In this document: in pieces, positions 3,627 to 24,552 of the stretch
How the letters are laid out: the number at the start of each line of letters is the position of its first letter
How positions within the stretch are numbered: position 1 is the stretch's first letter
DNA from: a virus
Lineage: Duplodnaviria > Heunggongvirae > Uroviricota > Caudoviricetes
DNA: 31,155 nt
Virus record (IMG/VR): IMGVR_UViG_3300029473_000204
Reading direction: 5' to 3' (one strand)
Notes under the pieces: generated by a model
The model's database searches: none
Seen by the model: the letters and a program-made list of their open reading frames with translations, nothing else
Told to the model about the DNA's origin: nothing
Position numbers and translations under genes: made by a program

Positions 3627-5739
3627 AGCCTCCGGGCGTTTTGTCCCTCCGTCAGCATTTGCTGCAGGCACCGGTAAGGCGTTTACCGGTGCTTATGCAT
3701 GGAACGCGCCACGCGAGGCCGTCGGGCGCGAAAGACCCCTTACACGTGACGAGATGCGTCAGGTGCAAGGTGTTTTATCCACGATTAACCGCCTGCCTTA
3801 CTTTTTGCGCTCGCTGTTTACTTCACGCTATGACTACATCCGGCGCAATAAAAGCCCGGTGCACGGGTTTTATTTCCTCACATCCACTTTTCAGCGTCGT
3901 TTATGGCCGCGCATTGAGCGTGTGAATCAGCGCCATGAAATGAACACCGACGCGTCGTTACTGTTTCTGGCAGAGCGTGACCACTATGCGCGCCTGCCGG
4001 GAATGAATGACAAGGAGCTGAAAAAGTTTGCTGCCCGTATCTCATCGCAGCTTTTCATGATGTATGAGGAACTCAGCGATGCCTGGGTGGATGCGCATGG
4101 CGAAAAAGAATCGCTGTTTACGGATGAGGCGCAGGCTCACCTCTATGGTCATGTTGCTGGCGCTGCACGTGCTTTCAATATTTCCCCTCTCTACTGGAAA
4201 AAATACCGTAAAGGGCTGATGACCACGAGGCAGGCATATTCTGCCATTGCCCGTCTGTTTAACGATGAGTGGTGGACTCATCAGCTTAAAGGCCAGCGTA
4301 TGCGCTGGCATGAAGCGTTACTGATAGCTGTCGGGGAGGTCAATAAAGACCGTTCTCCTTATGCCAGTAAACACGCTATTCGTGATGTGCGTGCGCGCCG
4401 CCAGGCAAATCTGGAATTTCTTAAATCGTGTGACCTTGAAAACAGGGAAACCGGCGAGCGCATCGACCTTATCAGTAAGGTGATGGGCAGTATTTCTAAT
4501 CCTGAAATTCGCCGGATGGAGCTGATGAACACCATTGCCGGTATTGAGCGTTACGCCGCCGCAGAGGGTGATGTGGGGATGTTTATCACGCTGACCGCGC
4601 CGTCAAAGTATCACCCGACACGTCAGGTCGGAAAAGGCGAAAGTAAAACCGTCCAGCTTAATCACGGCTGGAATGATGAGGCATTCAATCCAAAGGATGC
4701 GCAGCGTTATCTCTGCCGTATCTGGAGCCTGATGCGCACGGCATTCAAGGATAATGATTTACAGGTCTACGGTTTGCGTGTCGTCGAGCCACACCACGAC
4801 GGAACGCCGCACTGGCATATGATGCTTTTTTGTAATCCGCGCCAGCGTAACCAGATTATCGAAATCATGCGTCGCTATGCGCTCAAAGAGGATGGCGACG
4901 AAAGAGGAGCCGCGCGAAACCGTTTTCAGGCAAAACACCTTAATCGGGGCGGTGCTGCGGGATATATCGCGAAATACATTTCAAAAAATATCGACGGCTA
5001 TGCACTGGATGGTCAGCTCGATAACGATACCGGTAAGCCGCTTAAAGATACTGCCGCGGCTGTTACCGCATGGGCGTCAACGTGGCGCATCCCGCAATTT
5101 AAAACGGTTGGACTGCCGACAATGGGGGCTTACCGTGAACTACGCAAATTGCCTCGCGGCGTCAGTATTGCTGATGAGTTTGACGAACGCGTCGAGGCTG
5201 CTCGCGCTGCCGCAGACAGTGGTGATTTTGCGTTGTATATCAGCGCGCAGGGTGGGGCAAATGTCCCGCGCGATTGTCAGACTGTCAGGGTTGCCCGTAG
5301 CCCGTCGGATGATGTTAACGAGTACGAGGAAGAGGTCGAGAGAGTGGTCGGCATTTACGCGCCGCATCTCGGCGCGCGTCATATTCATATCACCAGAACG
5401 ACGAACTGGCGCATTGTGCCGAAAGTTCCGGTCGTTGAGCCTTTGACTTTAAAAAGCGGCATCGCCGCGCCTCGGAGTCCTGTCAATAACTGTGGAAAGC
5501 CTGCCAGCAGTGATACTTCGTTACCGGCTCCCACGCCTTCTGAACATGCCGCAGCAGTGCTTAATCTGGTAGATGACGGTGTTATCGAATGGAGTGACCC
5601 GGAGGTTGTGAGGATTCTAATGGTAGTGTTAAAAGGAGGGGAAGCATACAAAATCAACAACGAAGACGATTATCACCGCAAAGTGCCGAACAAGTCAGCT
5701 CAGTGGCTAAAACAAAGAATAAATAGAGTGGGTAACTAA
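3616..5739 (+). CDS. A: Replication initiator endonuclease A (rolling-circle, HUH-type), about 707 aa
   Basis: N-terminus MAVKASGRFVPPSAF matches the P2 A start as I recall it. GYIAKYISKNIDGY carries the active-site tyrosines and HWHMMLF the metal-binding histidines. The track ORF starts upstream at 3574, so the true start is ambiguous between 3574 and 3616. Confidence 0.85.
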   Translation: MAVKASGRFVPPSAFAAGTGKAFTGAYAWNAPREAVGRERPLTRDEMRQVQGVLSTINRLPYFLRSLFTSRYDYIRRNKSPVHGFYFLTSTFQRRLWPRIERVNQRHEMNTDASLLFLAERDHYARLPGMNDKELKKFAARISSQLFMMYEELSDAWVDAHGEKESLFTDEAQAHLYGHVAGAARAFNISPLYWKKYRKGLMTTRQAYSAIARLFNDEWWTHQLKGQRMRWHEALLIAVGEVNKDRSPYASKHAIRDVRARRQANLEFLKSCDLENRETGERIDLISKVMGSISNPEIRRMELMNTIAGIERYAAAEGDVGMFITLTAPSKYHPTRQVGKGESKTVQLNHGWNDEAFNPKDAQRYLCRIWSLMRTAFKDNDLQVYGLRVVEPHHDGTPHWHMMLFCNPRQRNQIIEIMRRYALKEDGDERGAARNRFQAKHLNRGGAAGYIAKYISKNIDGYALDGQLDNDTGKPLKDTAAAVTAWASTWRIPQFKTVGLPTMGAYRELRKLPRGVSIADEFDERVEAARAAADSGDFALYISAQGGANVPRDCQTVRVARSPSDDVNEYEEEVERVVGIYAPHLGARHIHITRTTNWRIVPKVPVVEPLTLKSGIAAPRSPVNNCGKPASSDTSLPAPTPSEHAAAVLNLVDDGVIEWSDPEVVRILMVVLKGGEAYKINNEDDYHRKVPNKSAQWLKQRINRVGN

Positions 5740-5870
5740 ACTCGCTTTGTTTTAGTTTGTGAATATATGAGACTGGACGCTGAAACCTGACGAGTAGGTT
5801 TGTGAGAATGATGATCTATTTGCATTGAGATAATATGTTAAGTTATAGGCTCTTTCTGCGTTAGTGCACT

Positions 5871-8439: not shown

Positions 8440-9100
8440 TGGCTACTAGCCATTTTATTGTGATCCCTAAACCACCTCCTGGGGAGGTGGTGATTGATCC
8501 TGTAAGGCTATAGCCTGAAGAATGCCCATGTCGGAATATCTCTGCTTACTCACCACAAGTAAAAGGAGACAAACTGACATGGGGTTTTACAGAAGTTCAT
8601 CATATGTATATTGGCGTTGCAAATATCACATAGTCTGGACGGCAAAGTACCGTTTTAGGATCCTGAGGGATAAATTGGGCAAGGAGCTGTACAGAACCAT
8701 CTATATTCTTTGCGGAATAAAAGATTGTGAGGTTCTGGAGTTAAATGTACAGGCAGATCATGTGCATCTTGTCGTAATAGTGCCGCCAAAAATCTCAATA
8801 TCTACTCTGATGGGGCACCTGAAAGGTCGCAGTGCAATCAGACTCTACAATCGATTCCCGCATATCAGGAAGAAGTTATGGGGAAACCATTTTTGGTCGT
8901 GGGGTTACTTTGTTGATACGGTAGGCGTGAACGAAGAAATTATCAGACGATATGCGAGGTATCAGGAAAAGATGGAGCAAACACATGAACAGCAGATGGA
9001 GTTGCTAGAGTAGAAAACGGAATATGACATTCGCCCCCCTTATAGGGGGCATTCTGAAAAGCCACCTCCTCAGGAGGTGGTCTTTTACTTCTACTGTGTT
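8440..9100 (+). mobile_element. IS200/IS605-family insertion sequence (IS200-like); boundaries approximate
   Basis: A Y1-transposase gene is flanked by near-identical perfect hairpins CCACCTCC-tgg-GGAGGTGG (about 8477-8495) and CCACCTCC-tca-GGAGGTGG (about 9061-9079), plus a CCCCCC-ttata-GGGGG hairpin at about 9045-9060. Exact ends cannot be fixed without a reference copy. Confidence 0.6.
8579..9013 (+). CDS. tnpA: IS200/IS605-family transposase TnpA (HUH Y1 transposase), about 144 aa
   Basis: WRCKYHIVWTAKYR near the N-terminus, HUH motif HVHLVV, and a C-terminal tyrosine region RRYARYQ. AAAAGGAGA ribosome-binding site before the ATG at 8579. The track ORF from 8522 is an upstream extension. 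Confidence 0.8.
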   Translation: MGFYRSSSYVYWRCKYHIVWTAKYRFRILRDKLGKELYRTIYILCGIKDCEVLELNVQADHVHLVVIVPPKISISTLMGHLKGRSAIRLYNRFPHIRKKLWGNHFWSWGYFVDTVGVNEEIIRRYARYQEKMEQTHEQQMELLE

Positions 9101-19632: not shown

Positions 19633-20541
19633 ATGCCGATTATCGACCTGAACCAGCTACCCGCACCGGATGTGGTCGAGGAGCTGGACTTTGAAACCAT
19701 TCTTGCCGAACGCAAGGCGACACTGATTTCCCTTTACCCGGAAGACCAGCAGGAGGCGGTTGCCCGTACCCTGACGCTGGAATCCGAGCCTCTCGTCAAA
19801 CTGCTGGAGGAAAATGCTTATCGTGAGCTTATCTGGCGTCAGCGTGTGAATGAGGCCGCACGGGCGGTAATGCTGGCCTGTGCCGCCGGTAATGACCTTG
19901 ATGTGATTGGTGCCAATTACAACACCACGCGTCTGATTATCACCCCGGCAGATGATTCGACTATCCCGCCGACACCGGCAGTGATGGAGTCTGACACCGA
20001 TTATCGTCTGCGTATTCAGCAGGCGTTTGAGGGCTTAAGCGTCGCCGGGTCGGTGGGAGCCTATCAGTATCATGGTCGCAGTGCTGACGGACGTGTCGCG
20101 GATATCTCTGTCACCAGTCCGTCTCCGGCCTGCGTCACTATCTCCGTGCTGTCACGTGAAAATAACGGTGTTGCATCCGAAGACCTGCTGGCCGTGGTGC
20201 GTAACGCCCTTAATGGCGAGGACGTCAGGCCGGTGGCCGACCGCGTGACCGTGCAGTCTGCCGCCATTGTTGAATATCAGATAAACGCCACGCTTTACCT
20301 TTACCCAGGTCCCGAAAGCGAACCCATCCGCGCTGCTGCCGTGAAAAAACTGGAAGCGTACATCACGGCACAGCACCGGCTTGGGCGCGACATCCGTCTG
20401 TCTGCCATTTATGCCGCTTTGCATGTAGAAGGCGTGCAGCGTGTCGAGCTGGCCGCACCACTGGCCGACATCGTGCTCAACAGTACGCAGGCGTCTTTCT
20501 GTACCGAATACCGCGTCGTGACCGGAGGCTCGGATGAGTGA
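19633..20541 (+). CDS. J: Baseplate protein J, 302 aa
   Basis: 302 aa, the same as P2 J. Confidence 0.85.
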   Translation: MPIIDLNQLPAPDVVEELDFETILAERKATLISLYPEDQQEAVARTLTLESEPLVKLLEENAYRELIWRQRVNEAARAVMLACAAGNDLDVIGANYNTTRLIITPADDSTIPPTPAVMESDTDYRLRIQQAFEGLSVAGSVGAYQYHGRSADGRVADISVTSPSPACVTISVLSRENNGVASEDLLAVVRNALNGEDVRPVADRVTVQSAAIVEYQINATLYLYPGPESEPIRAAAVKKLEAYITAQHRLGRDIRLSAIYAALHVEGVQRVELAAPLADIVLNSTQASFCTEYRVVTGGSDE

Positions 20542-21145
20542 TTCGCGCCTGCTGCCGACCGGCTCATCACCGCTTGAAGTCGCCGCCGCAAGAGCCTGTG
20601 CGGAAATTGAAAAAACGCCGGTCAGTATTCGTGAGCTGTGGAACCCGGATACCTGTCCGGCAAATCTGCTGCCGTGGCTGGCGTGGTCATTTTCGGTTGA
20701 CCGCTGGGATGATAAGTGGCCGGAAGCGACAAAACGCGCTGTTATCCGCGATGCGTATTTCATTCACTGCCATAAGGGCACTATTGGTGCGATTCGCCGT
20801 GTGGTGGAGCCGCTCGGCTATCTGATTGAGGTGAGGGAGTGGTGGCAGCTCAACGAGGAGCCGGGGACGTTCCGTATCGTTGTTGGCGTGCTTGAGCAGG
20901 GTATTACCGAAGAAATGTATCAGGAGCTGGAGCGTCTCGTTGCTGATGCAAAACCGGCAAGCCGCCATCTGACGGGACTGGCTATCAGTTTAAGTACAAC
21001 CGGCAACATTTTTGCCGGTGCGGGATGCTATCACGGTGACGCCCTGACGGTTTATCCCTACACCCCGGAGGCCATTATTGTCGGAGGGGATTATTTCCCG
21101 GCCTCGGCCATTCATTTAATTGATAACCTGAGAGTAAACGCATGA
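20534..21145 (+). CDS. I: Baseplate/tail-fibre attachment protein I, 203 aa
   Basis: N-terminus MSDSRLLPTGSSPLEVAAA matches P2 I as I recall it. Somewhat longer than P2 I (about 176 aa). Confidence 0.8.
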   Translation: MSDSRLLPTGSSPLEVAAARACAEIEKTPVSIRELWNPDTCPANLLPWLAWSFSVDRWDDKWPEATKRAVIRDAYFIHCHKGTIGAIRRVVEPLGYLIEVREWWQLNEEPGTFRIVVGVLEQGITEEMYQELERLVADAKPASRHLTGLAISLSTTGNIFAGAGCYHGDALTVYPYTPEAIIVGGDYFPASAIHLIDNLRVNA

Positions 21146-22317
21146 CAGTGAAATACTACGCCATTCTGACTAATCAGGGCGCAGCACGGCTGGCTAACGC
21201 GACGATGCTCGGCAGTAAGCTGAATCTGACGCAAATGGCCGTTGGTGATGCGAATGGTGTCTTGCCGACCCCAGACCCGGCACAGACAAAACTGATTAAC
21301 CAGAAACGCATCGCGCCGCTGAATCTTCTGAGTGTTGACCCGAACAACCAGAGCCAGATTATTGCGGAGCAAATCATCCCTGAGAACGAGGGCGGATTCT
21401 GGATCCGTGAGATTGGGCTTTATGATGATGAAGGCGTACTCATTGCGGTGGCGAACTGCCCGGAAACGTACAAACCGCAGTTGCAGGAAGGCAGTGGTCG
21501 TACCCAGACTATCCGCATGATTCTGGTTGTCACGAATACCGAAGCCATCACGCTGAAAATCGACCCGTCGGTGGTACTGGCGACCCGTAAATACGTGGAT
21601 GATGAAGTCCTGGAATTAAAGCTGTATGTGGATGACCAGATGAGGAACCACATTGCCGCACAGGATCCTCATACCCAGTATGCGCAGAAACATAATCCGA
21701 CATTTACCGGAGAACCAAAAGCGCCGACGCCTGCCGCAGGAAATAACACCACGCGGATTGCGACTACTGCGTTTGTTCAGGCCGCTATTACCGCTCTGAT
21801 TAACGGTGCGCCAGCCACGCTGGACACACTGAAAGAAATTGCCGCGGCCATTAACAATGACCCGAAATTCAGCACCACCATTAACAATGCGCTGTCAGGT
21901 AAGCAGCCACTGGATGAGACGCTGACTCATTTGAGTGGAAAGGATGTTGCCGGTCTTCTCGCATACCTTGGTTTGGGAGAATTATCTCTGGCTGGCACTG
22001 CATCGGGTGTCATTGGCCTGAATGGGTATGTAACGATCCCGTTAATTATTTCAGGTTCCCGGAGAACACTGATTATTCAGTGGGGGCAGGCGAGATTTGG
22101 TGGGTCTGGTGGTGAAGATGCCGGATATCTTAACGATTTTCCTTTTGCCTTTCCGTCAGCATGTTATGGAATGATAGTTAGTCATGTGGGGCATACACCT
22201 TCAGGCGCAGGAATCCTGTCGGCTTCTGCAATTACATCAAATCAGTTCCGCGGTTTTTCAAGCATAGCGACTGCTGCAAACGCTGTATTAGGTCGTTATA
22301 TCGCTATAGGGGTGTAA
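21142..22317 (+). CDS. H: Tail fibre protein H, 391 aa; the C-terminal roughly 112 aa lie inside the invertible segment
   Basis: N-terminus MTVKYYAILTNQGAARLANA is the conserved P2 H N-terminal region. It is much shorter than P2 H (669 aa), and the C-terminal region is AT-richer and downstream of the crossover site. Confidence 0.85.
   Translation: MTVKYYAILTNQGAARLANATMLGSKLNLTQMAVGDANGVLPTPDPAQTKLINQKRIAPLNLLSVDPNNQSQIIAEQIIPENEGGFWIREIGLYDDEGVLIAVANCPETYKPQLQEGSGRTQTIRMILVVTNTEAITLKIDPSVVLATRKYVDDEVLELKLYVDDQMRNHIAAQDPHTQYAQKHNPTFTGEPKAPTPAAGNNTTRIATTAFVQAAITALINGAPATLDTLKEIAAAINNDPKFSTTINNALSGKQPLDETLTHLSGKDVAGLLAYLGLGELSLAGTASGVIGLNGYVTIPLIISGSRRTLIIQWGQARFGGSGGEDAGYLNDFPFAFPSACYGMIVSHVGHTPSGAGILSASAITSNQFRGFSSIATAANAVLGRYIAIGV
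21956..21981. repeat. Left crossover site for the DNA invertase (hix/gix-like), inside H
   Basis: TTCTCGCATACCTTGGTTTGGGAGAA. Its last 14 nt (TTGGTTTGGGAGAA, 21968-21981) are the exact reverse complement of 23819-23832, and it encodes LGLGE at the constant/variable junction of H. Confidence 0.65.
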
Positions 22318-22318
22318 T

Positions 22319-22756
22319 ATGTTTTATAGTCCATCTTTAAACATTTTTGTGAATCCTGCACTTAAGGATGATTACATTAATGCAAATTCATGGCCAGATG
22401 ATGCTCTGGCTGTCAGTGACGATGTTTATAATGAATTTGCAATAAATACGCCCCCAGATGGCAAAATTCGTGTTGCAGGAGAAAATGGATTACCCACATG
22501 GGCACTAATACCTTCACCATCACATGAAGAACTTATTCAACAGGCAGAATCAGAAAGGCAATTATTGCTTAATCAGGCCAACGAATACATGAACAGTAAA
22601 CAATGGCCCGGTAAAGCCGCTATTGGTCGTCTGAAAGACGAGGAACTGGCGCAATATAATTTGTGGCTGGATTACCTGGACGCACTGGAGCTGGTTGATA
22701 CCTCCAGTGTGCCAGATATTGAATGGCCTACGCCTCCGGCAGTTCAGGCCAGATGA
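22319..22756 (+). CDS. G: Tail fibre assembly chaperone (Tfa; P2 G equivalent), 145 aa
   Basis: Immediately after H. C-terminus LWLDYLDALELVDTSSVPDIEWPTPP is typical of Tfa chaperones. Confidence 0.8.
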   Translation: MFYSPSLNIFVNPALKDDYINANSWPDDALAVSDDVYNEFAINTPPDGKIRVAGENGLPTWALIPSPSHEELIQQAESERQLLLNQANEYMNSKQWPGKAAIGRLKDEELAQYNLWLDYLDALELVDTSSVPDIEWPTPPAVQAR

Positions 22757-23330
22757 CATCCGGCGCTGTGCTGGTATCTGTTGCCGTCACCGCGTCAATG
22801 TAATCCAGCACAGTGTTAAGTCGGGTGGTCTCTGCCTGCATCAGCTTCCGCCCGGCCTGCAATTTAAGTTGAATCAGACTAATGGAAGCCATTGCAGTAT
22901 TAATCAGTGACTGACGCTGTACTTCTGCCGCGTCTACTGCGGCGCTATGCTGTGCCTCAGTATCGGTCACCCATTTCTTACCATCCCATTTATCGAATGG
23001 CGTTAACGGGGCGATAGTGGTTGTATTTTCAGGATAATCACCCGGAGCTGTGATTTCTTTGGCGTCTCCCGTTTCGGTTTTATAGACGATTTCACCGCGA
23101 TGGTCTGGCACATATTCCCATGAGTTAAAATCTGCAGAACGGCAGATTGCATAACCAGCTTTATGTGTAACTGGTGCATCTAAACAAGAACATGCCGGGA
23201 TACCGACGCCAACCGCAAGATATTCAGTTGATGTGGAAATATATTCCCGCGTTTCACCATCATAATTATAAATGGTAATGTCTCCCGCTTTTATGGCAAT
23301 GAGTTCGTTATTTAATACGGCTTTATTCAT
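22728..23330 (-). CDS. Alternative tail fibre assembly chaperone (Tfa'), inverted orientation, 200 aa
   Basis: C-terminus NTVLDYIDAVTATDTSTAPDVIWPELPEA is a Tfa-type tail. It converges on, and overlaps by 29 bp, the plus-strand tfa. Confidence 0.75.
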   Translation of the reverse strand: MNKAVLNNELIAIKAGDITIYNYDGETREYISTSTEYLAVGVGIPACSCLDAPVTHKAGYAICRSADFNSWEYVPDHRGEIVYKTETGDAKEITAPGDYPENTTTIAPLTPFDKWDGKKWVTDTEAQHSAAVDAAEVQRQSLINTAMASISLIQLKLQAGRKLMQAETTRLNTVLDYIDAVTATDTSTAPDVIWPELPEA

Positions 23331-23872
23331 CAGGCAGCCCTCACGATATAGTTAAATGCAATATTCCGTGGACGGGTTTCATTTATCCCATATGCTGTTG
23401 TTCTCTGATTCCCGACAAAATATCCATTTGGATTAGAAGATACAGAATAATCATCAAAATCAAGTGGGCTATCAGCACCCGGCGTCAGGCTTGCAATATA
23501 TCCTCTTCCCATAACTTCTGATGCTGGTATTTCTTTTGTACGATAATCACTAACTCTGAAGAGCTGCCCTTGGTGGGTGTGTGATTCCACTCCTCCATTC
23601 TGAAGACTTAGCAAGGCACGTACAGCATCAATACCACGCCCGTCATCCCAGCCACGAATAAACTCACCACGTAAATCAGGCAATTTATTTGTCGGATAAG
23701 CCTTTGCCAGTTCCGGGTATTCTTCAGCAGAAAAAGCGGCACCGTTGCATTTCAGCCAGCCTGTTGGCGGAGTGGCTGAAGGCCACGGAACAGGCACCCC
23801 AACCGGTAATGCAGAGCCTTCTCCCAAACCAACGTTTATGAAAATGCAGAGATAACGGGCAAGTGGCATCAT
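23330..23872 (-). CDS. Alternative tail fibre C-terminal (receptor-binding) cassette, currently silent; the first roughly 18 codons of the track ORF are probably not translated
   Basis: Minus-strand ORF with no promoter or ribosome-binding-site context. The right crossover site lies inside its 5' end, encoding the same GLGE junction in inverted orientation. Inversion would fuse residues GSALPVGVPVPWPSATPPTGW... to the constant part of H. Confidence 0.65.
   Translation of the reverse strand: MMPLARYLCIFINVGLGEGSALPVGVPVPWPSATPPTGWLKCNGAAFSAEEYPELAKAYPTNKLPDLRGEFIRGWDDGRGIDAVRALLSLQNGGVESHTHQGQLFRVSDYRTKEIPASEVMGRGYIASLTPGADSPLDFDDYSVSSNPNGYFVGNQRTTAYGINETRPRNIAFNYIVRAA
23819..23844. repeat. 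Right crossover site for the DNA invertase (hix/gix-like)
   Basis: TTCTCCCAAACCAACGTTTATGAAAA resembles the hixL/gix consensus (TTCTTGAAAACCAAGGTTTTTGATAA as I recall it), with imperfect dyad symmetry. It is the inverted partner of 21956-21981. Confidence 0.65.
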
Positions 23873-23899: not shown

Positions 23900-24493
23900 A
23901 TGCTTATTGGCTATGTACGCGTATCAACAAATGACCAGAACACGGAATTGCAGCGTAACGCGCTGGAGTGCGCGGGATGTGAGCGGATTTTTGAGGACAA
24001 AATCAGCGGCACGAAGTCCGACAGGCCGGGACTGAAAAAACTGCTCAGGACATTATCGGAGGGGGATACACTGGTAGTCTGGAAGCTGGACCGGCTGGGA
24101 CGTAGTATGCGGCATCTGGTCATTCTGGTTGAGGAGCTGCGCGAACGCGGCATTAATTTTCGCAGCCTGACGGATGCCATTGATACCAGCACGCCGATGG
24201 GACGTTTTTTCTTTCATGTGATGGGTGCCCTGGCTGAAATGGAGCGAGAACTCATTGTCGAGCGGACACGCGCCGGACTGGAAGCGGCCAGAGCCAAAGG
24301 GCGTATTGGTGGCAGACGTCCGAAGCTCACCGCGAGTGAGTGGGAACAGGCAGGACGGTTGCTGGCTGCGGGTGAATCACGTCAACGCGTGGCGCTGATT
24401 TTTGATATTGGCCTGTCCACGCTCTATAAAAAATTCCCCTCATCAGCGGCAAAGAATAAATTGTGTCATCCCTTAGCCAACCGGGACAAATAG
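23900..24493 (+). CDS. Serine recombinase, DNA invertase of the Hin/Gin/Cin/Pin family, about 197 aa
   Basis: N-terminus MLIGYVRVSTNDQNTELQ carries the catalytic serine motif of resolvase/invertase enzymes; GRRPKL and a C-terminal HTH follow. It lies directly next to the crossover site. The track start at 23894 is a GTG two codons upstream. Confidence 0.85.
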   Translation: MLIGYVRVSTNDQNTELQRNALECAGCERIFEDKISGTKSDRPGLKKLLRTLSEGDTLVVWKLDRLGRSMRHLVILVEELRERGINFRSLTDAIDTSTPMGRFFFHVMGALAEMERELIVERTRAGLEAARAKGRIGGRRPKLTASEWEQAGRLLAAGESRQRVALIFDIGLSTLYKKFPSSAAKNKLCHPLANRDK

Positions 24494-24552
24494 CCTGACA
24501 TCTCCGGCACAACTGAAAATAACACTCACCCATTAACCACGGAGTTAAACGG

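Follow-up and report, generated by a model that had tools for sequence, protein, structure and literature searches.

This study concerns a stretch of 31,155 nucleotides from a virus of the Caudoviricetes (IMG/VR record IMGVR_UViG_3300029473_000204), hereafter called the window. It carries a gene for a serine DNA invertase beside the tail-fibre gene H and, on the opposite strand, a second fibre C-terminus with a chaperone gene of its own. The original prediction held that this is a host-range switch of the Mu G-segment type on a P2 backbone, which raises the questions of whether the segment between the two fibre ends is indeed invertible, at which sites it recombines, to which known system it is closest and whether the copy in the window still flips. 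Our conclusion is that the locus is very probably a Pin-type invertible tail-fibre cassette, of the class of the e14 P segment and the Mu G segment, in a P2-like (Peduovirus) prophage. The switch is real and almost certainly works. Its features are listed in Table 1.

Table 1 Features of the tail-fibre switch, with positions in the window, strand and the evidence for each
Feature	Positions	Strand	Evidence or detail
H, constant N-terminal part (codons 1-275), outside the invertible segment	21142-21966	+	Phage_tail_fib N-terminal domain, E=2e-62
Left recombination site (pixL-like)	21956-21981	+	TTCTCGCATACCTTGGTTTGGGAGAA; central dinucleotide TT at 21968-21969; inner half-site and core at 21968-21981
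Hv, variable C-terminus now fused to H, 116 aa	21967-22317	+	Gp53-like_C, E=2.3e-11
Invertible segment, 1,861 bp from one central dinucleotide to the other	21970-23830		homology breakpoints, in-silico flips
tfa, 145 aa, chaperone for tail-fibre assembly that goes with Hv	22319-22756	+	Caudo_TAP, E=2e-34
tfa', alternative chaperone, 200 aa, silent in the present orientation	22728-23330	-	Caudo_TAP, E=6e-31
Hv', alternative C-terminus, 167 codons	23330-23833	-	Phage Tail Collar domain, E=5e-16
Right recombination site (pixR-like)	23819-23844	+	TTCTCCCAAACCAACGTTTATGAAAA; central dinucleotide AA at 23831-23832
Leader of 13 codons with ATG, outside the segment	23834-23872	-	MMPLARYLCIFINV; in frame with whichever C-terminus faces it
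Serine DNA invertase, Pin/Gin/Cin type, 197 aa	23900-24493	+	intact ORF, domains and identity
Putative recombinational enhancer, Fis-dependent, at nt 19-90 of the invertase gene	23918-23989	+	same place in the gene as the enhancer of P1 cin
P2 pF late-promoter region, equivalent of the Ogr activator site plus FI leader	24456-24552	+	homology to P2; right-hand boundary of the replaced block

The P2 backbone and the invertase

Over the first 25 kb of the window, Peduovirus genomes gave a coverage of 71-82% with 96.7-97.7% identity; phage pro483 covered 82% at 96.7% identity. Pfam matches to Phage_GPA, Tail_P2_I, Phage_GPD, sheath, portal and terminase were found, and the genes follow the P2 order (int, A, Q/P, capsid, V-W-J-I-H, FI-FII-E-T-U-D). 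The predicted P2 backbone is thus borne out by Peduovirus homology, but the system nearest to the switch is the e14 P segment with its invertase Pin, which is closer than Mu G. Canonical P2 homology is lost at position 20970 and is back at 24473, with flanks that are 93.7% and 96.8% identical, and the block with the switch stands in place of P2 H-G-Z/fun. The activator site and the transcription start at its right-hand boundary are annotated in the P2 record. An invertase in the P2 Z/fun hotspot has been described before (iLund4u preprint, 10.1101/2024.10.15.618418).

The invertase gene is intact and sits just outside the segment, in agreement with the prediction of an adjoining Hin/Gin/Cin-family enzyme. 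The domains of its product (Resolvase, PF00239, E=8.5e-53, residues 3-135; HTH_7, PF02796, E=1e-12, residues 138-181) and its identity to e14 PinE (86.7%), Gin (79.3%) and Cin (78.5%) place it in the Din family (Hin/Gin/Cin/Pin). The protein matched the Gin crystal structure 3uj3 (S9A form) with E=2.5e-95, the stretches MLIGYVRVSTNDQ and KLDRLGRS align to Gin without gaps, and the catalytic Ser9, in YVRVSTNDQ, is kept together with D64, R65 and R68. In NCBIfam, neither the invertase nor the fibre parts matched a specific equivalog.

The recombinational enhancer annotated for P1 falls within the 5' portion of cin. A Fis-consensus-like 15-mer was found at nt 71-85 of the gene in 4/4 invertase genes, exact in cin and gin and with one mismatch in the window. 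Across nt 19-90, DNA identity among the invertase genes is 5-13 points higher than in the remainder of the gene, and synonymous-site conservation over codons 11-30 was not raised in a four-gene test. These signals are weak, and position, 15-mer and identity are all confounded by coding constraint. By analogy, the invertase of the window may depend on Fis and an enhancer. A promoter scan revealed no consensus sigma-70 site upstream of the invertase gene; genes of such invertases are weakly expressed.

Recombination sites and inversion in relatives

An inverted-repeat search returned two 26-nt arms (21956-21981 and 23819-23844), which are 81% complementary with 1837 nt between them, and the inverted sites with an exact 14-bp core that had been predicted were found precisely there. 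The 14 bp common to both are TTGGTTTGGGAGAA at 21968-21981 and its reverse complement at 23819-23832, and the central dinucleotide is identical in both sites when read in the same sense (TT/AA). The expected resemblance to hix and gix could also be verified: with at most three mismatches, the hix/gix-type consensus TTCTCNNAAACCNNGGTTTNNGAGAA matched only these two sites in the 31-kb window, and 0 of 100 dinucleotide-preserving shuffles contained any match. When the 14-mer was searched throughout the window with at most two mismatches, the sole further match was at 5795, which is distant and not in any fibre gene. A shufflon-like multi-site system, as in p15B Min or the P2-like locus of EPEC with three inverted repeats, was considered and rejected because only two sites are present in the window.

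Both 26-bp sites align with the annotated cixL/R, gixL/R and e14 sites and have the architecture of the Din family, in which two imperfect half-sites of 12 bp flank a 2-bp core. The right site is identical over 26/26 bp to the site beside pinE in e14 of E. coli K-12, and the module is therefore assigned to the Pin/P-segment type of switch on a P2 (Peduovirus) backbone. The same exact 26-bp sequence was found at three loci only across species-representative genomes, all of them copies of e14 in E. coli or Shigella. It includes CCTTCTCCCAAACCAA, the e14 inverted repeat reported in PMC12529663, and inversion at e14 repeats that share this core has been validated by experiment (PMC12529663; PMC4272514). 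A possible action of the window's invertase in trans on e14 rests on this identical site and 87% identity to PinE. The left site differs from the left site of e14 at three outer positions only; it is identical to those of three relatives (L001, L003 and L008) and has one outer mismatch to that of the pair SC477/SC455.

Both orientations are present in close relatives, and so the outcome that would have spoken against a switch, a single orientation only, was not observed. Among complete E. coli genomes, 47 match the orientation of the window and 46 its in-silico flipped form, a genome being counted when at least 80% of the respective form was covered; one genome covers 100% of the flipped form in a single piece with 95.9% identity. 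An identical copy of the module was found neither among complete E. coli genomes nor among phage records, where the best matches reach 95-96% identity. The homology breakpoints between the window and flipped relatives fall at the two sites. Three sister pairs (SC477/SC455, ETEC1730/ETEC1703 and TBE6/TST3) have 0 mismatches over 6.6-6.8 kb after one member is flipped in silico, and this holds only if the crossover is put inside the shared core. TBE6 and TST3, which have the same ISKpn26 insertion in common, narrow the crossover to site positions 12-19, TTGGTTT, with the central dinucleotide included. The comparison of sister isolates thus amounts to a crossover map at the level of base pairs. 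These near-identical relatives have recently undergone site-specific flipping at these sites, and their invertases are 190-196/197 aa identical to that of the window. Flipping of the window's own copy is inferred from these relatives, which are about 95% identical in DNA.

Any pair of inverted repeats, whatever its origin, could in principle recombine, and the inversions in the relatives might have been made by RecA-dependent homologous recombination rather than by the invertase. This explanation was rejected as extremely improbable, since no more than 7-14 bp are left for the crossover: the identity amounts to just 14 bp, or 7 bp in TBE6/TST3, far below efficient RecA substrates, and the exchange occurred there in three independent pairs. 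Besides, a longer inverted repeat between the tfa genes (18 bp, 89%) was left unused, the sites have Din-family architecture and an invertase always adjoins them. In e14, mutation of pinE, alone or together with pinQ, fixes the segment in one orientation (PMC12529663). Site-specific inversion by a Din-type invertase is hence the reading that we follow below.

Alternative fibre tips and the minus-strand leader

The constant part of H is collinear with relatives of either orientation, with 97.6-98.4% identity, as far as 21981. Behind each of the two C-termini comes a separate chaperone gene, so that two convergent cassettes, Hv with tfa and Hv' with tfa', lie between the sites, and the 3' ends of tfa and tfa' overlap by 29 nt. 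The tips differ in domain: Hv carries Gp53-like_C, whereas Hv' carries a Collar domain. H in its present form encodes 391 aa, and the in-silico flip gave an open H' of 442 aa by in-frame fusion. Over its whole length, this H' shares 99.1% identity with the 442-aa H annotated in a flipped relative (L008). The anatomy, the family membership and the in-frame fusion both ways are thereby established. An exchange of the 3' end of H and tfa for the minus-strand C-terminus and tfa' had been predicted and stands, in frame in both orientations, but the coordinates given for that C-terminus (23330-23872) had to be corrected to 23330-23833, since codons 23834-23872 lie outside the invertible segment. In the same way, LGLGE had been claimed for both sites; the left site encodes L-GLGE but the right one V-GLGE, and the junction is nevertheless LGLGE in either orientation because the first base of the codon lies outside the crossover.

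Hv is 37% identical to the C-terminus of e14 StfP, with the same GLGE junction, and tfa is 52% identical to TfaP over the C-terminal 118 aligned positions. In the silent cassette, Hv' is 58.5% identical to StfE and tfa' 88.5% to TfaE. Among the relatives, the variable tips vary through cassette swapping.

A copy with the full anatomy of a switch could still be a relic that no longer flips, with an invertase that is unexpressed or defunct and only the plus-strand H being made. The missing consensus promoter upstream of the invertase gene and the mismatch in the Fis-like site would fit such a state, but we regard it as very unlikely. The invertase ORF is intact with its catalytic residues kept, and its product is identical in 196/197 aa to that of the SC477/SC455 prophage, which was seen in both orientations. 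Compared with sites that have flipped in relatives, the right site is identical and the left one identical or 1 nt off. The ORFs of the silent cassette are also intact and H' is 99% identical to a homologue in the expressed position, which argues for continued selection. Cross-complementation among Gin, Cin, Pin and Hin is established, and other Din invertases of the host could act in trans.

Next to the right site, the leader is kept in seven P2-like relatives and in e14 (MMPFACYFFIFINV). The ORF that starts in it would yield a product of 180 aa in the present orientation and of about 129 aa after a flip, and such short ORFs are annotated by PGAP in relatives. The switch might thus have a second purpose, in that the cassette facing the invertase makes a free receptor-binding-domain protein in the lysogen, which masks receptors and excludes other phages; an analogous chimera of e14, StfE2, was reported to block T2 adsorption (PMC12529663). 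We consider this unlikely, since a promoter scan revealed neither a consensus sigma-70 site nor a promoter-like sequence ahead of the leader on the minus strand, GGAG lies directly against the first ATG, which is poor spacing, and one relative (L002) carries a copy of the final stretch of constant H instead of the leader. The conservation of the leader may merely reflect the outer half-site and the promoter region of the invertase. Equally doubtful is a wider scheme, in which a receptor-masking protein translated from the leader is combined with flipping of a resident e14 P segment in trans by the invertase, so that P2-like lysogeny would be coupled to phase variation of phage resistance in the host. 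The preferred reading remains a switch between two tips of the phage's own fibre.

Known systems, mechanism and consequences

The e14 P segment with PinE has the same order of elements (fibre constant part, site, Hv, tfa, tfa', Hv', site, invertase), the same GLGE junction, the same 29-nt overlap of the tfa 3' ends and the same leader ORF outside the segment, which measures 1,797 bp in e14 and 1,861 bp in the window. In contrast, e14 is defective, its fibre constant part is short and its baseplate neighbour is Mu-like (DUF2313), whereas the window contains a complete P2-type phage with the N-terminus of a P2-family H (Phage_tail_fib). Its expressed tip and the N-terminal half of tfa are unrelated or distantly related to StfP and TfaP of e14 (the 37% and 52% given above), and its invertase has an additional C-terminal extension of 13 aa that runs into the P2 pF promoter. 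Mu G/Gin and P1 C/Cin share the logic of a constant N-terminus outside, two convergent cassettes of C-terminus and chaperone inside and the invertase just outside. Like the window, Mu and P1 have 26-bp sites with an AAACC-NN-GGTTT core, and the central dinucleotide is TT/AA in the window, cix and e14 but TC/GA in gix. The segment is about 1.9 kb long in the window, and those of Mu and P1 measure 3 kb and 4.2 kb. The fibre tips of Mu and P1 are unrelated at the DNA level to those of the window, and the phage backbone is different, too.

Such an arrangement is not unusual among P2-like prophages. The P2-like relatives pro483, the P2-like phage of O157:H43 T22 and Salmonella phage MET_P1_103_31 have an annotated DNA invertase and the switch between I/H and FI, as in the window. 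P2-like loci of EPEC E2348/69, compared by their description (Goldberg et al. 2014, PMC4272514), have it at the same position of the P2 genome; there, both orientations coexist in clonal cultures as revealed by WGS and PCR, and one locus has three sites and four variants, whereas the window has two sites. The type of switch is therefore already known and widespread, and inversion was shown experimentally in e14 and P2-like prophages.

From these data we propose the following model. H is split by the 26-bp site, and its codons 1-275, outside the segment, would be transcribed from the upstream P2 late operon. Hv and tfa would now be in the expressed position and give the 391-aa fibre with the gp53-like tip, while Hv' and tfa' would be silent on the other strand. 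The invertase would bind both inverted sites, cut at the central TT/AA and exchange the strands, probably in a Fis/enhancer-dependent invertasome whose enhancer would lie in the 5' part of the invertase gene itself. The flip would then join the N-terminus of H via LGLGE to Hv', giving the 442-aa fibre with the collar tip, and the TfaE-like chaperone would come next. The particles released by a population of lysogens would therefore be of two kinds, which differ in their receptor-binding tips. By analogy with Mu and P1, the two tips may confer a different host range.

New biology would be implied only if the silent cassette proves to be expressed in lysogens. In annotation, H, the two tfa genes and the fragments called "gp53-like" or "phage tail protein" make up one phase-variable unit, and assemblies of the same prophage may legitimately differ by a 1.9-kb inversion. 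Prediction of the host range of P2-like phages and engineered swaps of their tail fibres need to consider both tips.

Organization of the module and its P2-like context

The window represents a complete prophage of the P2-like (Peduovirus) type. It has genes for integrase, portal, terminase, tape measure and gpD as well as gene A, and its first 25 kb were 96.7–97.7% identical to pro483, S164, MET_P1_103_31 and others, in agreement with the P2 structural backbone proposed in the original prediction. Homology to canonical P2 extended to position 20970 (93.7%), was lost there and resumed at 24473 (96.8%). Therefore, a block comprising the 3' end of I plus H, tfa, tfa', the alternative fibre tip Hv' and the invertase gene takes the place of H-G-Z/fun of P2. 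The right block junction (24473) falls within the counterpart of the P2 Ogr activator site at the late promoter pF. The invertase is 13 aa longer at its C-terminus than PinE of the E. coli K-12 prophage e14 (SSAAKNKLCHPLANRDK; 24440–24493), and these extra residues are the reading frame continuing into the pF promoter. Its last codons overlap the activator-site equivalent (24456–24484), and the TGT-N12-CCA arrangement of P2 is kept.

Gene layout of the invertible module and its flanks
Feature	Position	Strand	Product or domains
Gene I	20534–21145		Tail_P2_I
Gene H	21142–22317		391 aa; Phage_tail_fib N-terminal domain, Gp53-like C-terminal domain
tfa (tail-fibre assembly gene)	22319–22756	+	
tfa' (second tfa)	22728–23330	-	
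Minus-strand ORF	23330–23872	-	Phage Tail Collar domain
Serine recombinase	23900–24493	+	197 aa; Resolvase, HTH_7 domains
Sheath gene FI	24553–25743		

Codons 1–275 of H, encoding the constant N-terminus, lie outside the segment, which holds two convergent cassettes of tip and chaperone; the intact invertase gene sits beyond the segment end. The 3' ends of the convergent tfa genes share 29 nt (22728–22756), an overlap also present in e14 and in every relative examined, and an 18-bp inverted repeat in the two genes (89%; 22666–22683 and 22792–22809) codes for their common (W/V)LDY(L/I)DA motif.

Elsewhere, the P2 cargo hotspot that separates gene A from the portal gene Q carries a two-gene PARIS-type anti-phage cassette (5905–8225, minus strand), encoding an AriB-like protein (284 aa, DUF4435; PADLOC AriB, E = 4e-18) and an AriA-like ABC/AAA ATPase (488 aa; PADLOC AriA, E = 2e-31). 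An IS200-like Y1 transposase ORF (8522–9013, plus strand; 163 aa; PF01797, E = 2e-37) adjoins it in the same hotspot.

Recombination sites and family of the invertase

The top-ranked inverted repeat returned by a repeat finder was 21956–21981/23819–23844 (26 nt, 81% complementary), whose inner 14 bp TTGGTTTGGGAGAA (21968–21981) recur as an exact inverse copy at 23819–23832. A scan of the 31-kb window for the hix/gix-type consensus TTCTCNNAAACCNNGGTTTNNGAGAA, allowing up to three mismatches, matched these two sites and nowhere else, and none of 100 shuffled sequences had any match. This confirms the inverted sites bounding the switch segment, their shared core and their predicted likeness to hix/gix. 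Reference sites were taken from annotated records (Mu G-segment boundaries, P1 cixL/cixR with enhancer, K-12 e14), and the window sites aligned with all three systems. Both have AAACC-NN-GGTTT as their core, like gix and cix, and TT/AA as central dinucleotide, like cix. The right site was identical to the e14 site beside pinE (26/26 bp), the left one differed from its e14 counterpart at three positions, all outer, and the e14 repeats TTGGTTTGGGAGAAGG and CCTTCTCCCAAACCAA (Kirigo et al. 2025, PMC12529663) have the same core. Both sites had been said to encode LGLGE, but the codon across the core is CTT (Leu) at the left and GTT (Val) at the right site. The crossover does not include the first base of this codon, so the junction nevertheless reads LGLGE in either orientation; H is in frame in both.

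The neighbouring enzyme, predicted to be of the Hin/Gin/Cin family, was indeed 86.7% identical to PinE, 79.3% to Gin and 78.5% to Cin; Gin crystal structures aligned with it end to end (E = 2.5e-95), and both Ser9 and the D/R/R cluster are kept. The minus-strand Tfa was 88.5% identical to TfaE and the minus-strand fibre C-terminus 58.5% to StfE, whereas the expressed tip (37% to StfP) and tfa (52% to TfaP) are only distantly related, if at all, to their e14 counterparts. From these identities and the site matches, the module can be assigned to the Din (Hin/Gin/Cin/Pin) inversion systems. Of the proposed Mu G-segment-type switch, the Din-class fibre inversion thus stands, but the nearest system by sequence is the e14 P segment and not Mu G.

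An enhancer in the 5' end of the invertase gene is weakly suggested. It was placed by position from the enhancer annotated in P1 (cin nt 19–90); DNA identity there is slightly above that of the rest of the gene, and a Fis-like 15-mer (gene nt 71–85) is kept in cin, gin, pinE and, with one mismatch, the window.

Inversion in close relatives

Flipping was judged from natural experiments in relatives. In MET_P1_103_31 and in the P2-like phage of O157:H43 T22, collinearity with the window ended at 21981 and was regained at 23818/23833; the stretch in between matched the opposite strand, which places the breakpoints at the two sites. To obtain the flipped form, the segment was inverted computationally, placing the crossover at the central dinucleotide. 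Among 5,426 complete E. coli genomes, it was found at a coverage of at least 80% in 46 and the window form in 47; genome 382634_2f covered the flipped form 100% in a single piece (95.9% identity). E. coli MS 198-1 carries two homologous modules in opposite orientations on different replicons (NZ_CP146687.1, chromosome; NZ_CP146689.1, a 66.8-kb record). Each of the two covers 80% of the query, with 95.1% identity.

Two pairs of sister isolates, SC477/SC455 and ETEC1730/ETEC1703, each pair from a single study, differed solely by the flip, with flanks 100% identical over 2.3–2.5 kb. In-silico flipping left 0 mismatches in 6.6 kb when the crossover was put within the shared 14 bp, and only then. 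In a third pair, TBE6/TST3, with a common ISKpn26 insertion in the module, the inner half-sites are not identical, which confines the exchange to site positions 12–19 (TTGGTTT), central TT included. This is the signature of serine-invertase exchange at the core and not of homologous recombination; RecA-mediated inversion, contradicted by a crossover window of 7–14 bp, is scarcely credible. Precise, recent inversions at these sites are thus shown in close relatives. One inner half-site of TBE6/TST3 resembles cix (GGTTTAAGAGCA); recombination thus takes place between non-identical sites. In these two E. coli isolates, ISKpn26 (IS5-like) breaks up the fibre C-terminus of collar type within the segment. 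The segment flipped nevertheless, and in one orientation H itself is interrupted.

The window's own copy could be a frozen relic that no longer flips, which we consider very improbable: its invertase matched that of SC477/SC455 in 196 of 197 aa, and its sites differ by 0 or 1 nt from those that flipped. The predicted swap of the H 3' end and tfa for the alternative pair is also supported: the fusion H' (442 aa) is open in frame and shares 99.1% identity along its entire length with the H annotated in a flipped relative; the silent cassette is therefore a functional allele.

Leader ORF, precedents and proposed mechanism

Outside the right site, a 13-codon ATG leader (MMPLARYLCIFINV; 23834–23872, minus strand) is in frame with whichever fibre C-terminus faces the invertase. 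PGAP names such short ORFs 'gp53-like domain-containing protein' or 'phage tail protein'. The leader may allow the facing cassette to be made in lysogens as a stand-alone receptor-binding domain, a role claimed for e14 StfE2; its conservation in seven P2-like relatives (among L001 and L003–L009) and e14 (MMPFACYFFIFINV) favours this, but a promoter scan gave no supporting promoter and we regard it as unlikely. In the O157:H43 T22 phage (KC618326), a duplicate of the last stretch of the constant region of H (TGLLAYLGLGE) stands in the outside leader position, and the right site (4540–4569) is the perfect inverse of the left (2679–2704) plus 4 bases, a perfect 30-nt inverted repeat; its invertase is annotated ~100 nt shorter at the 5' end and its H has ~220 nt of extra internal sequence.

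Coexisting orientations were found by sequencing and PCR for e14 and two EPEC P2-like prophages, one with a simple two-variant and one with a three-site locus (Goldberg et al. 2014, PMC4272514). Mutation of pinE, or of pinE together with pinQ, locks e14 in one orientation; among 562 deposited E. coli genomes, 33% have the P segment inverted (PMC12529663). DNA invertases, with inversion of the genes beside them, are frequent in the P2 Z/fun hotspot (iLund4u preprint, 10.1101/2024.10.15.618418), and records of pro483 and like phages already annotate the invertase and both fibre/tfa pairs. The finding is thus correct and this kind of system already known; the switch interpretation is supported, refined to the Pin/e14 P-segment type. 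The promoter scan also gave no consensus promoter for the invertase. By analogy with Gin, Hin and Cin, the enzyme would be weakly and constitutively expressed and would cleave at the central dinucleotide in a Fis/enhancer-dependent invertasome, and two particle types differing in receptor specificity would be released.
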